DNA of 48,963 bases, taken from assembly GCA_905236245.1 (NCBI GenBank), contig CAJOPC010000021.1, positions 1 to 48,963 of the forward strand, written 5' to 3'. Positions 11,556 through 15,676 of this stretch are shown one piece after another. This stretch comes from an uncultured Alphaproteobacteria bacterium. Lineage in GTDB: Bacteria; Pseudomonadota; Alphaproteobacteria; CAAHEQ01; UBA3637. How positions within the stretch are numbered: the first letter of the stretch is position 1; every line of letters begins with the position of its first letter. The position numbers were made by a program, and so were the translations under genes. The notes beneath the pieces are model-generated. The model did no database searches, was not told where the DNA came from, and was given only the letters and a program-made list of their open reading frames with translations.

Positions 11556-12446
11556 TTACTCTTTCTTTTCTATTGTGGATTTTCGAGTTGCTTCTGCCAA
11601 TAGGCGCCTGGATAAAAGATCCAGTTGCTCGATTTCCAATTGTGTTTTTACTTGTTCTTTTGTTGGCATGACTTGCTGTGTTTTCAAATCACATTTCATC
11701 ATAACCAATATCCCCTTTGGTGTTTGCATAGGCCCTAATGTTTCTCCTACTGCAATATCGCTTAATAAATCATAAAGTTCCGGTGGAAATTGTTTTGGAT
11801 CAACCCAACCTCGTTGCGCTGACTCCGGATAAGGTCCTATTTTAATGTGCTCTAAAAATGCGTCACAAGTTTTTGATTCCAATGTTGTTGAAACATTCAC
11901 ATTTTCCGGAAAAACACCTTGGGCAATTTCCCATAAAGTGATATGGTCGCCTTTAATTCCTTGGGATTTTAATTCTTTGCGCATGGCCTGATATCTTTTA
12001 TCAACAGCCAAATCAGAGACCTTTAAATCGGCGGCATGGCTGTGTAAATATTGCAACCACAGCAAATCGGCCTCCACCTGATCAATCATGGTTTTTAAAG
12101 GAACGCCGTTTTTATTTAAAAAATTCGGAAGATCCCCTTGTTTTAGTCCGTTTTGTTGTTCCAAATGATTCAGGGCATTTTGTAAATCTTGTTTAGACGC
12201 TTTTGCCCCAGCAGCAATAGCAGTTTGTTTTTTGATTGTTGATTCTATTAAATTGTCCAAAACTTGTTTTTGAAATTTCTTTTCTTCCATGCGATCATAA
12301 ACTTGCGGTTGTTGCATTTTAAGTAACTTTCCCCAATTTTTGACGTCCAAGTCGGACAGAGGCGTATCATTAACTGTCGCCTTTAATTCCATGGCCATGG
12401 TCGTTCCAGAGATGAGCAGCCATAATGTAAGAATTAAATATCTCAT
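11556..12446 (-). CDS. surA: SurA-family periplasmic chaperone (divergent PPIase domain)
   Basis: Signal peptide, ATVND.P.S..D SurA N-domain, GWV...PP.L and GPMQTPKG parvulin remnant; follows lptD. Confidence 0.78.
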   Translation of the reverse strand: MRYLILTLWLLISGTTMAMELKATVNDTPLSDLDVKNWGKLLKMQQPQVYDRMEEKKFQKQVLDNLIESTIKKQTAIAAGAKASKQDLQNALNHLEQQNGLKQGDLPNFLNKNGVPLKTMIDQVEADLLWLQYLHSHAADLKVSDLAVDKRYQAMRKELKSQGIKGDHITLWEIAQGVFPENVNVSTTLESKTCDAFLEHIKIGPYPESAQRGWVDPKQFPPELYDLLSDIAVGETLGPMQTPKGILVMMKCDLKTQQVMPTKEQVKTQLEIEQLDLLSRRLLAEATRKSTIEKKE

Positions 12447-15400
12447 TCGCCGAGTCCTCCTAAAGTTTTTAACAAAAGTTTGAACACAATAGATGTGCTA
12501 CCTTTATAGTTTCTGTCCCTTGCATATGATTTGGACACATTCATTGAGACAGCAGTACACTCATTATCATAGCGTAATTGCCATCCATATTCAATAGGGC
12601 CGCCGTGTTTTTTTAGGTTATAACGGTAATATCCGGAAGTTTGCCAGTTTTTAGTTAGTTGCGAGGATGCATTAAAACGAATTTCATCTTCTTCGTCATA
12701 ATATTTGTCATCCAACACATAGCTAGCTTGATATAGATAATTGATGCCAAGACGTAAAGGATCATTTCCTACTTGGAAGCCAACGTCATTTTTGCGTTTT
12801 GAAAAATTCTTTTGATCCAATCTGAAACGATAAGAAAGGTTCATATATTGATAGTTCATTTGAACATGTCCTACGTAATCAGATAGGTGATTGCTATAGC
12901 CCATAACGTCACTCAGTTCATCATTTGCGTGTAATCGATAGACTTGTCCGAATAAGAAGGAAAAAGAGCGCGTTCTGTTTTCATTGTGATAAGCTGTCCA
13001 TTGGAAACCATAATTGACGCGGTTGCCATATTCAATACGATCATAACCGGCAAATCGATTTTCGGAAAATAAATTCGTATCATCAAAGTCAAAGATACTA
13101 CTGTCTATATTGGGAATTTCAGATGAATTTTTTGAATTGGGTGAGGCAATTAACATCACGATGGGTTCAAATATTTGTGTGGTAGATTCTGTATACATGC
13201 CCAACGGATAGCTGATTTTTGTTGAAGCAATAGGTGAGAATCGTCCTTTATTAAAGGAGTCTTGTTGATTTCGAGTAGAAACCAAAGTATCTCTGTTTAT
13301 GTTTAACGCATATCCGTCTAAGCGCACGCTTGCTCTTGTTTTGGTCACAAGCCCGAATCCTGTGGTATAAGGAAGCTCAAAACCTTGAATACCTGATAAT
13401 CTGTTAGATTTTAAATGTGTCCGTGTGTTATACATAGCAGCATTTATTTTTGTGAAAGCAATTAATCCAGAATCTGTCAGAGGAGCGGTTGTATAATTGC
13501 TATCAACCGTAGGAATGACAATAGGAATTGATTCACTGTTGACCCCGTTTACCAAACTTTGAAAATGCCAAGCTTTTGCTTGTGTGTAAAAACGGGTTCC
13601 AAAATATTCTGCCGTCAAATGGGAACGCAAGAAAGATTCCGAATCGTCAACATTAGGGATGGTATATCGTCTGAAATATGTATCATTGATTGTTCGGAAA
13701 TATTGTCCGGAAAGACGTAAATTTTCTGTTGTATCATATTCAAAATTTGTTTTAATGTGCCCTTGTTTGGCAGAATCATTATCTTTTGTTCCGCTGAGTT
13801 GTAAATTCACAATGCCTTTTGTAAAACGCCCGGAATAATCAATAATCCCCAGTGGTAAGTGATTAAAAGATATCTCCGGTGTAAATAATAAATTTTGATT
13901 TTGTGCAAGATTTACAAAAAACGGTGTTTCAATTGCCAATCCCATTTCTCGGGTATGTCGAATGGCTGGTGCTAAAAATCCCGTTTTCCTTTTAATGGTC
14001 ATATCTGGAATTTGAAAATAGGGAAAATATAAAATAGGAAAGTCCATAATATCTAAGAACATATGATTAAAAGACAAAGTATGATCCGTAAAATCCTGGG
14101 TAATTTTTTTTGCTCCGATTTGCCATAATGGAGCTTCTCCCTGACAAACATGACAAGGTGTATAAGTTGCTTCCTGCAAGATAATGATGTTTCCATCTGA
14201 AGTGTGCATCTTCTCTGCGCTTAATAAACTGCCATCAGTAAATTGATTGGTAATGGAGTTGGCTTCTGCCTTTGATTGTTTAGGCGACAATGTCATGTTT
14301 TCAACAGTAGATTGTGTGCCGTCCGCCAAAGATAGTTGTGTTTTGTGAGGCACTAAAACTTCGTCTTTTTCTTTGTTGTAAAGAATTTTATCTGTTTTAA
14401 TTTTCAATTGATCTTGTCGTAAGATCACATTCCCTGTCGCGGTTATGATATTCTTATGCGCATCATAACTCATGTGATCTGCTTCAAAATCTATAGGAGC
14501 TTTTGGGTTTATGTGATCTAAATTAATTTTTGGAACCGCAAAACTAGGAGAGGCAAGGCCTATTACTGCCAGAAAAACACTCAAAGAAATAAATCCCATT
14601 TTGCGTTCTTTTATGAGGACAAAATACAATACAATAAGCGGAATAAATAAGTTTGAAGCCATCAAAATAATCCCCCACAAATTACGCACGGCTATATTTT
14701 CAAAAGCCAGTGAAAATGATTGTAGCAGTAATGCGCAAAAAATGATAGCATTAATTTGTTTGGATTGTCCGCGACGATTGTAAAAACCATGTAAAACACC
14801 AAAAGCGGCCAGCCATAAAAACAGCAAATTATATAATGGTTGAGTTAAACGTTTAAAGGCTTCTACTTTGCATTTGCGGTAGAGTGGAGCATCCGGTATC
14901 ATCTCGGGAGTTACTTGAATTAATTGCTTCAATGTCATTTCTCGAGGATCCATCTTATGTTTTGATTTGCCCGCTTTGTCTGAAAAGAGCATAGTATATT
15001 TATCAAATTTTAAAATGGAAAACTGTTGTGTTTGCGGCGTGTATTCTTGGCGAATACCATTGTTAAATGTGAGGCTGATGCCTTCGGGAGTTTGCATCAT
15101 AGAACCTTCGCGGGCAATTAAAGTGGATTTTTTATCATCTTTCATTTCATAAGCTAAAATACCACGCACCTTGCCGGAATTTTCTCGTTCTCTGATATAC
15201 AGGGTTGAGCCGTTTTTAAAAGAAGTAAATTGGCCTTCTTGTAATAATAAGTGAGAAAGATTGTTTTGAATTTGCCATCGAATTTCTTTGCGTTCATTAA
15301 AGGATTTGGGAATAATGTAAAGTGTTAAAAAATAACCTCCGATAATCAACAGAAAAGCTAAAAATTGTAAAGGTTTTAAAAGTTGTTTGCTGCTCATGCC

Positions 15401-15676
15401 AACGGCCTTTAATACAATCAATTCTTTGTCTGCTTGCATGCGGATAAAAACAAACAAAACGACACCGAATAAAGCCAGTGGTGATAGAATTTGTAAAAAG
15501 TTTGGTAAGACTAAAAGCGTCATTTTTAAAAAGATTCCAACAGAAACACCCTTTGTGACAATCATGTCAATCATGCGCAAAGATTGTGTCAGCCAAATCA
15601 AAGTCGTCAAGCTGATTAAAATCGCAAGAAAGCCGATTAAAGTTTGCTTAAAAATATAAGTGTTTACTGTTTTCAT
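12443..15676 (-). CDS. lptF-lptD: In-frame fusion of LptF permease (aa 1-~355) and LPS-assembly protein LptD (aa ~360-1077)
   Basis: LptF: YIFKQ, WLTQSLR, DKELIVLKAVGMS and six TM helices. LptD: FEADHMSYD jellyroll, YTPCHVC, RKTGFLAP, NRFAGYDRIE, YDNEC and LKTLG C-terminus. No stop at the junction. Confidence 0.88.
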   Translation of the reverse strand: MKTVNTYIFKQTLIGFLAILISLTTLIWLTQSLRMIDMIVTKGVSVGIFLKMTLLVLPNFLQILSPLALFGVVLFVFIRMQADKELIVLKAVGMSSKQLLKPLQFLAFLLIIGGYFLTLYIIPKSFNERKEIRWQIQNNLSHLLLQEGQFTSFKNGSTLYIRERENSGKVRGILAYEMKDDKKSTLIAREGSMMQTPEGISLTFNNGIRQEYTPQTQQFSILKFDKYTMLFSDKAGKSKHKMDPREMTLKQLIQVTPEMIPDAPLYRKCKVEAFKRLTQPLYNLLFLWLAAFGVLHGFYNRRGQSKQINAIIFCALLLQSFSLAFENIAVRNLWGIILMASNLFIPLIVLYFVLIKERKMGFISLSVFLAVIGLASPSFAVPKINLDHINPKAPIDFEADHMSYDAHKNIITATGNVILRQDQLKIKTDKILYNKEKDEVLVPHKTQLSLADGTQSTVENMTLSPKQSKAEANSITNQFTDGSLLSAEKMHTSDGNIIILQEATYTPCHVCQGEAPLWQIGAKKITQDFTDHTLSFNHMFLDIMDFPILYFPYFQIPDMTIKRKTGFLAPAIRHTREMGLAIETPFFVNLAQNQNLLFTPEISFNHLPLGIIDYSGRFTKGIVNLQLSGTKDNDSAKQGHIKTNFEYDTTENLRLSGQYFRTINDTYFRRYTIPNVDDSESFLRSHLTAEYFGTRFYTQAKAWHFQSLVNGVNSESIPIVIPTVDSNYTTAPLTDSGLIAFTKINAAMYNTRTHLKSNRLSGIQGFELPYTTGFGLVTKTRASVRLDGYALNINRDTLVSTRNQQDSFNKGRFSPIASTKISYPLGMYTESTTQIFEPIVMLIASPNSKNSSEIPNIDSSIFDFDDTNLFSENRFAGYDRIEYGNRVNYGFQWTAYHNENRTRSFSFLFGQVYRLHANDELSDVMGYSNHLSDYVGHVQMNYQYMNLSYRFRLDQKNFSKRKNDVGFQVGNDPLRLGINYLYQASYVLDDKYYDEEDEIRFNASSQLTKNWQTSGYYRYNLKKHGGPIEYGWQLRYDNECTAVSMNVSKSYARDRNYKGSTSIVFKLLLKTLGGLGE

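Follow-up and report, generated by a model that had tools for sequence, protein, structure and literature searches.

The DNA analysed here (the window) is a contig of 48 963 nucleotides (CAJOPC010000021.1, assembly GCA_905236245.1) from an uncultured alphaproteobacterium whose genome is available as a 1.12-Mb draft of 55 contigs, with an estimated completeness of 85%. On its minus strand, a single open reading frame (ORF) codes for two components of the lipopolysaccharide (LPS) transport machinery (Lpt) in succession: LptF, which belongs to the inner-membrane permease, and LptD, the β-barrel of the outer membrane (Table 1). This lptF-lptD gene is a genuine, inherited fusion that probably encodes the precursor of two proteins.

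The two parts were identified by domain searches. Pfam models placed LptF_LptG (PF03739) at aa 7–355 (E = 8.8e-63), LptD_N (PF03968) at aa 398–480 (36 bits against a cut-off of 20.4) and LptD (PF04453) at aa 644–1011 (E = 1.8e-42; 146.5 bits against a cut-off of 22.4). Among the NCBIfam models, the one for LptF (TIGR04407) matched aa 6–353 with 231.2 bits (cut-off 230), far above the 76.5 bits reached on the same part by the LptG model (TIGR04408); the first part was therefore named LptF and not LptG. The full-length LptD model (NF002997) aligned to aa 390–1057. No stop codon lies between the two parts, and the initial annotation of the window was thus right to describe them as one frame. The AlphaFold2 (AF2) model of the fused protein (mean pLDDT 79.5) contains six long helices in its LptF part (2–42, 46–82, 96–143, 263–295, 305–331 and 335–355), which agrees with the six transmembrane (TM) helices expected of LptF, and jellyroll strands at 150–232; the LptD part is all-β (396–1069, pLDDT mostly 80–95). 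With a pTM of 0.50, the relative placement of the two halves in this model is not interpretable. We take the orientation of LptF from the solved LptB2FG structures, where both termini are presumably cytoplasmic; by this analogy, and from the positively charged loop that follows TM6, the C-terminus of the LptF part would also face the cytoplasm.

Table 1. Features of the lptF-lptD locus (window coordinates)
Feature	Positions	Strand	Basis
Fused lptF-lptD ORF, 1077 aa	12443..15676	-	ORF list; domain matches; stop codon at 12443-12445
LptF part, aa 1-355: six TM helices, periplasmic β-jellyroll between TM3 and TM4	14612..15676	-	PF03739, TIGR04407, AF2
Putative n-region KERK, aa 356-359: short cytoplasmic loop from TM6 to the signal-peptide core	14600..14611	-	Sequence
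Internal in-frame ATG (Met360), without Shine-Dalgarno sequence, not conserved	14597..14599	-	Duplex energy; alignment of relatives
Predicted internal signal peptide, h- and c-regions (aa 360-380, MGFISLSVFLAVIGLASPSFA)	14537..14599	-	Conservation counts, AF2
Predicted mature LptD part, aa 381-1077: N-terminal β-jellyroll, then C-terminal β-barrel	12446..14536	-	PF03968, PF04453, NF002997, AF2
surA-like gene, ATG overlapping the lptF-lptD stop codon (ATGA)	11556..12446	-	ORF, SurA_N match
xerD-like tyrosine recombinase gene, stop codon directly abutting the lptF-lptD start codon	15677..16603	-	ORF, Phage_integrase and SAM-like domains

Distribution of the fused gene

Continuity of the frame was examined in an independent assembly and in related genomes. 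A separately built contig of run X1, possibly the source sample of the window genome, spans positions 12300–14776 and bridges the junction with 0 differences and no indels; neither a stop codon nor a frameshift is present. A search for RNA runs listed none; run X2 had a small share, and one of its contigs (245 nt) falls on 13402–13646. The order to which the genome belongs consists of one family of small-genome Alphaproteobacteria, with 80 species genomes in 16 genera, i.e. 79 besides the window genome. The junction is contained in a single frame in 74 of these 79 genomes, across 16 genera and down to 37% identity, again with no stop or frameshift at the junction. In 68 of the 79, the whole fused protein (1071–1101 aa, 37–68% identity) occupies one open frame; in six others (G007, G068, G074, G066, G090 and G065) the junction is in one frame and the gene is broken elsewhere or by contig ends. 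The fused protein is the sole LptF and the sole LptD of the window genome. A word-indexed protein search recovered 58 clusters of fused LptF–LptD proteins from public data. Where named, these proteins are called just ‘LptF’ or just ‘LptD’, so that in each record one of two essential functions is invisible; they are attributed to metagenome-assembled genomes (MAGs) of ‘Alphaproteobacteria bacterium’. The records of the relatives are likewise MAGs, many of them from animal digestive tracts.

A split lptF/lptD pair was found only once in the order, in G009 (locus L026, contig G009:C6), where the TGA of lptF overlaps the ATG of lptD (ATGA) and AAGGAG lies upstream. This genome is nested inside the fused clade as the sister of G010 and G016 (support 100/99), and either the gene was secondarily split again here by a one-base indel, or this MAG (78% complete) contains a one-base error. 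G005 was considered as a second split case and rejected, as each piece is still open where its contig ends, exactly at the junction; in G060, judging from coordinates, the contig breaks just past the junction. LptD was not found in G049 (98% complete) or G062 (75% complete), either by protein query or with PF04453; these genomes could have lost the LPS translocon, or the gene could fall in an assembly gap. G049 has a single match to the LptF/LptG family.

The junction segment and the proposed fate of the fused protein

The junction reads ...LYFVLI-KERK-MGFISLSVFLAVIGLA-SPSFA↓VPKINLDH..., and its 25-aa segment KERK-MGFISLSVFLAVIGLASPSFA↓VPK has the order of a signal peptide: a basic n-region, a hydrophobic h-region and a polar c-region (n-h-c). 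With Ala380 (position −1) encoded by nucleotides 14539–14537 and Val381 by 14536–14534, the predicted cut falls between 14537 and 14536; this is the SFA↓V site proposed in the initial annotation, and the n-h-c reading of the segment stands. The window protein was aligned with 21 relatives and with 54 database proteins (A1), and motifs were counted by rule over 72 distinct fused proteins. In A1 the junction is unconserved in both sequence and length, except for a nearly invariant Ala380 and the consensus AxA. Among the 72 fused proteins, position −1 is Ala in 71 and Ser in 1, and position −3 is A in 38, S in 13, V in 12, T in 6, F in 2 and L in 1 (A/S/V/T in 69 of 72). A polar or helix-breaking residue occurs at −6 to −4 in all 72, and an uncharged h+c stretch of 15–23 aa (median 17) was found in 71. 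The loop forming the n-region has a net charge of +1 to +9 in the 62 proteins that were parsed by script; for the other 10, the script halted at a charged residue at −2 or −4. Judged from these comparisons, selection acts on the cleavage motif, and the remainder of the junction drifts.

The uncharged runs in the helices of LptF itself (19–27 aa) are longer than the core of the junction. AF2 models both halves confidently and gives pLDDT values below 50 for aa 360–389, with a single 13-residue helix at 362–374, which, as modelled, is not an integrated TM7. A passage of PMC2120157 states for the endoplasmic reticulum (ER) system that cleaved signal peptides have shorter h-regions than uncleaved signal anchors. 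A gene for signal peptidase I is present in the window genome (TIGR02227, 175.6 bits against a cut-off of 47; C45:16163-16768). A lipoprotein-type signal was ruled out, there being no Cys at +1 in the window junction or in any of the 72 fused junctions.

Stand-alone LptD proteins carry a comparable segment at their N-terminus. That of G009 begins MKGKYFSALLLSFMTFSAQA↓F, and that of the outgroup G026 begins with an ordinary signal peptide, MMRLILLAILCCFIVQPCFA↓K; the stand-alone sister LptDs P0088 and P0123 also start with an N-terminal signal peptide. By sequence comparison, the fused junction is homologous to the working N-terminal signal peptide of stand-alone LptDs.

The reading that we consider likely is that the gene encodes a Sec-inserted polyprotein, which signal peptidase I would cut after Ala380 to give LptF with a seventh, C-terminal helix and free LptD. 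LptF would be inserted in the inner membrane by its six helices, with its C-terminus left in the cytoplasm. The next 25 residues would be the former LptD signal peptide, with its basic n-region, a hydrophobic core of ~9–17 residues and a polar c-region ending small-x-Ala. Paired with TM6 in a hairpin, this segment would re-enter the Sec translocon and initiate export of LptD, and signal peptidase I would then cut after Ala380. One product would be an LptF that keeps the signal peptide as a short seventh helix at its C-terminus; the other would be a normal mature LptD, bound for the outer membrane and assembly by the β-barrel assembly machinery (BAM), surA being the next gene. As a consequence, LptF and LptD would be produced strictly 1:1 and LptD would be targeted co-translationally. 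This topology of the precursor is what we infer from its parts, and a benefit from the 1:1 stoichiometry of LptF and LptD may be supposed. The fusion may be adaptive, on account of its 1:1 output and co-translational LptD targeting, or it may be the result of a neutral ratchet in compact genomes.

The initial annotation had offered two explanations for the joint, a polyprotein split by signal peptidase I and a tethered trans-envelope bridge. The comparative data (conservation at −1 and −3, length of the h+c stretch, an unconserved Met360, presence of a signal peptidase I gene and N-terminal homologues of the segment) favour the first, in which cleavage is a prediction, and speak against the second. 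In the tethered form, the junction would be a permanent seventh TM helix, and a single chain would run as a covalently continuous trans-envelope machine from LptF, in the inner membrane, to the LptD barrel, in the outer one. Such an arrangement could draw on the single frame, on a junction hydrophobic enough to span a membrane and on the fusion of LptC to LptA in the same order (described below), which suggests a trend to covalently linked Lpt parts. However, a permanent anchor offers no reason for the −1 Ala, the small −3 residue or the polar c-region, all three of which are kept almost throughout the 72 proteins. An h+c stretch of the observed length leaves a core shorter than the helices of LptF, the AF2 helix at the junction has 13 residues and low confidence, and stand-alone LptDs bear the same segment as an N-terminal signal peptide. 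In addition, the first jellyroll strand, at 396, lies only ~15 residues past Ala380, or ~5 nm when these are fully extended. In the E. coli bridge, the jellyrolls of LptF, LptC and LptA canonically precede the N-terminal edge of LptD. If the bridge is built here as in E. coli, a link of ~15 residues is too short to pass round the LptF–LptC–LptA jellyrolls, which makes a tether unlikely on geometry, and the LptC–LptA protein has been kept in 24 of 24 family genomes. Taken together, we regard the tethered form as unlikely. Two further ideas, improbable even when taken jointly, are that an uncut or partly cut junction combines with the LptC–LptA fusion to hard-wire, at envelope contact sites, an LPS bridge whose length and stoichiometry are fixed, and that the cut does occur and the retained signal peptide serves as a functional seventh LptF helix beside the lateral gate, where the LptC helix normally sits.

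Alternatively, two proteins could be made by internal initiation, with LptD translated mainly from an internal start (ATG 14599 in the window) and the read-through fusion being a minor or irrelevant product. Met360 is exactly where a stand-alone pre-LptD would begin, and many relatives have an in-frame ATG, GTG or TTG near the n-region. To place this codon among the translation starts of the window, anti-Shine–Dalgarno (anti-SD) duplex energies were computed for the starts of its 27 ORFs of at least 200 aa and for 308 internal in-frame ATGs; the medians were −5.9 and −2.3 kcal/mol, respectively. The start of lptF-lptD itself scores −5.2 kcal/mol. ATG 14599 reaches −0.9 kcal/mol, no better than internal in-frame ATGs, so that the absence of a clear SD sequence, already remarked on in the initial annotation, is borne out in a genome whose genes do use SD sequences. 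Met360 is replaced by Ile in the five closest relatives and the positions of candidate starts vary, and in 5 of 22 genomes (G008, G015, G016, G011 and G017) there is no ATG, GTG or TTG between TM6 and the middle of the h-region, hence no start that would leave a functional signal peptide. Moreover, in the absence of a stop codon, ribosomes translating lptF must enter lptD, and the fused protein is necessarily made. An internal start was rejected as a general mechanism on the grounds of non-conservation and the missing SD sequence, and we hold initiation within the gene to be a quite unlikely main source of LptD.

The explanation with the least to recommend it is that a stop codon was lost by assembly or sequencing error, or that a pseudogenised fusion is decaying in a reduced genome: the incomplete 55-contig draft, the different frames of the two genes in G009 and contig breaks near the junction in two other relatives could be cited for it, but the run X1 assembly agrees at every junction base, the single frame recurs across the 16 genera, each half matches its family at full length and retains many invariant residues, the genome has no other LptF or LptD, and the split G009 is nested among fused genomes, so that decay is scarcely credible and assembly error is already effectively refuted.

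Several points weigh against a cleaved polyprotein. We infer the cut after Ala380 and the fate of both products from sequence. The h-region of the window protein has ~15 residues with a Kyte–Doolittle mean of ~1.8 over 19 residues (calculated by hand), and is hydrophobic enough that a TM predictor would call a helix there too. In the sub-clade of the window genome, the loop between TM6 and the junction is just four residues long (KERK). An in-frame ATG stands exactly at the start of the h-region in the window genome, and some internal initiation may therefore take place here. Finally, if the split form of G009 is not due to an indel error, then it is viable and the fusion is not obligatory.

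Origin of the fusion and the other Lpt genes

The initial annotation had noticed that lptG is missing from its usual place between lptF and lptD, and the gene was located on another contig, after uvrC and pgsA (C35:10644-11702, 175.9 bits). In 9 of 14 matching outgroup families of the class (16 were searched), coordinates show lptF, lptG and lptD as separate genes in this sequence. The lptF and lptD genes lie next to each other, in different frames, in G026 and in another group with two Haematospirillum sp. records among its members; the lptF stop codon and the lptD ATG of G026 are 5 nt apart. The adjacent, unfused genes of G026 imply that loss of lptG from between them preceded fusion, for which a small indel would then suffice. 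Probably, once lptG had relocated, such an indel joined lptF and lptD genes that lay side by side or overlapped. Reversal is difficult, the internal start and its SD sequence having decayed.

Candidates for the same fusion outside the order were also evaluated. Loci at 30–33% identity with adjacent lptF and lptD, including those of the two Haematospirillum sp. records, proved to have separate frames and not to be fused. The apparent 1129-aa and 1166-aa frames at L095 and L106 are long open frames in the phase of lptD and out of phase with lptF. An exhaustive, profile-free search of 1.84 billion representatives yielded three further fused proteins, from distant lineages, at 28–32% identity (P0065, P0095, which is a fragment, and P0106), with domains confirmed; each has an n-h-c joint of its own, ending AGA↓K, AKA↓A and LFA↓Q, respectively. 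In a tree of 66 LptD parts, the label ‘fused’ requires at least 4 changes, and P0065 and P0106 each group with stand-alone LptDs (SH-aLRT 100 and 97), which open with Met and a normal signal peptide; the tree comes from a quick search on sequences of heterogeneous composition, and P0106 sits on a long branch. The placement of P0065 and P0106 suggests independent fusion events, and on this tree LptF–LptD fusion has arisen, or been undone, several times. As a separate observation, six LptD homologues of 852–932 aa (P0083, P0094, P0134, P0141, P0145 and P0202) have an N-terminal extension of ~170–230 residues before the jellyroll; the two that were scanned, P0083 and P0145, have no Pfam match in it.

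The lptC and lptA genes, sought elsewhere in the genome, were found as a single fused ORF of 335 aa between a kdsD-like gene and lptB (C30:19553-20557, plus strand; L031:871-1878). It has an N-terminal TM anchor, an LptC match at aa 23–192 (TIGR04409, 42.2 bits against a cut-off of 38) and an LptA match at aa 211–330 (TIGR03002, 43.4 bits, below the cut-off of 71.7). By eye, there is no hydrophobic stretch past the N-terminal anchor, and the LptA signal peptide is gone. The downstream signal peptide has thus been lost where both parts are periplasmic (LptC–LptA), and kept with its cleavage site where the chain must cross the membrane again (LptF–LptD). The LptC–LptA protein was matched in all 24 other family genomes searched, as a single stretch over both halves in 22 and as two or three stretches within one open frame in G014 and G021; the frame of G021 codes for 470 aa and includes an extra LptA-like stretch. 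In outgroups with both halves matched, LptC and LptA are in separate frames. Directly after lptC-lptA comes an ORF for a 244-aa ABC ATPase, identified as lptB by its position and by ATP-binding motifs recognised by eye. LptE (PF04390) was not detected in the window genome, at its 85% completeness. The same model was run on five relatives (G014, G021, G022, G061 and G024): three gave matches of 21.7–22.5 bits, G014 a match of 15 bits and G024 none. All of these matches are below the cut-off of 23 and lie in ORFs of 168–196 aa; LptE may have diverged strongly in this order.

Downstream of the fused gene, the SD sequence of surA (AGGAGG, anti-SD duplex −10.2 kcal/mol) is situated within the final codons of lptF-lptD. 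It coincides with the Leu-Gly-Gly codons of LKTLGG, a nearly invariant motif at the C-terminus of LptD (12443–12470, minus strand), and there may be mutual constraint between this protein motif and the downstream ribosome-binding site. At 296 aa, the SurA homologue is short; it has a SurA_N match and, for the rotamase domain, a weak one (17.7 bits, below the cut-off of 27), and looks like a reduced SurA.

Relation to known systems and significance

The canonical Lpt machine of E. coli is described in passages of PMC8727689 and PMC9972910 as an assembly of seven proteins, LptB2FGC–LptA–LptDE. The window genome resembles it in having members of the LptF, LptG, LptB, LptC, LptA and LptD families, the usual jellyroll and barrel of LptD, and surA after lptD; it differs in that LptF and LptD share one ORF, LptC and LptA share another, lptG is unlinked, and four or five genes take the place of seven. 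The closest parallel to the proposed processing is FbcH of Bradyrhizobium japonicum, reportedly a polyprotein of cytochrome b and cytochrome c1 that is split at an internal signal sequence (work of Thony-Meyer, Hennecke and colleagues, about 1989–1991); its processing into separate subunits is said to have been demonstrated experimentally. Both cases are alphaproteobacterial, both fuse a polytopic inner-membrane protein, upstream, to an exported member of its own complex, and in both an internal signal peptide at the joint stays, or would stay, on the upstream protein. In contrast to FbcH, whose two products both remain at the inner membrane, the downstream product here is an outer-membrane β-barrel, which has to part from the inner membrane entirely, and the processing of LptF–LptD is a prediction.

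Outside bacteria, passages of PMC5113920 and PMC8002126 describe envelope polyproteins of flavi-, pesti- and bunyaviruses in which internal signal sequences are the sites of cleavage by the signal peptidase of the host. The likeness lies in a membrane-spanning segment with a small-x-small site, cut on the lumenal or periplasmic side to free the downstream ectodomain with equimolar output; the viral polyproteins, unlike LptF–LptD, depend on the eukaryotic signal peptidase complex of the ER and are unrelated in sequence. To our knowledge, cellular bacterial examples of polyproteins cut by signal peptidase are rare. As regards LptC–LptA, terms for engineered fusion constructs are present in PMC12065857 and PMC10208570. 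Those constructs likewise place the LptC and LptA jellyrolls in one chain, but they are products of the laboratory, whereas the 335-aa protein is encoded by a natural gene. No description of a natural LptF–LptD or LptC–LptA fusion was found in the main texts of the literature searched, and PMC9938171, checked in this connection, was set aside because ‘fused’ refers, where it occurs in that text, to fluorescent tags. All the parts come from known families; new are the combination of an inner-membrane permease and an outer-membrane barrel in one gene, the conservation of this pair across the order, its recurrence and the companion LptC–LptA fusion.

If the cut takes place as proposed, LptF–LptD would be a rare cellular bacterial polyprotein and, as far as the literature was searched, the first case of an inner-membrane protein and an outer-membrane β-barrel made from one chain. 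It would show that an internal signal peptide located after a six-helix membrane protein can drive export of a barrel precursor of 700 residues, i.e. co-translationally, and the order would offer a natural experiment on fixed 1:1 production of LptF and LptD. The LptC–LptA fusion bears on the open question of the number of LptA units in the periplasmic bridge. In this order it is set by the gene: most members encode one LptA-like unit, and G021 apparently encodes two.

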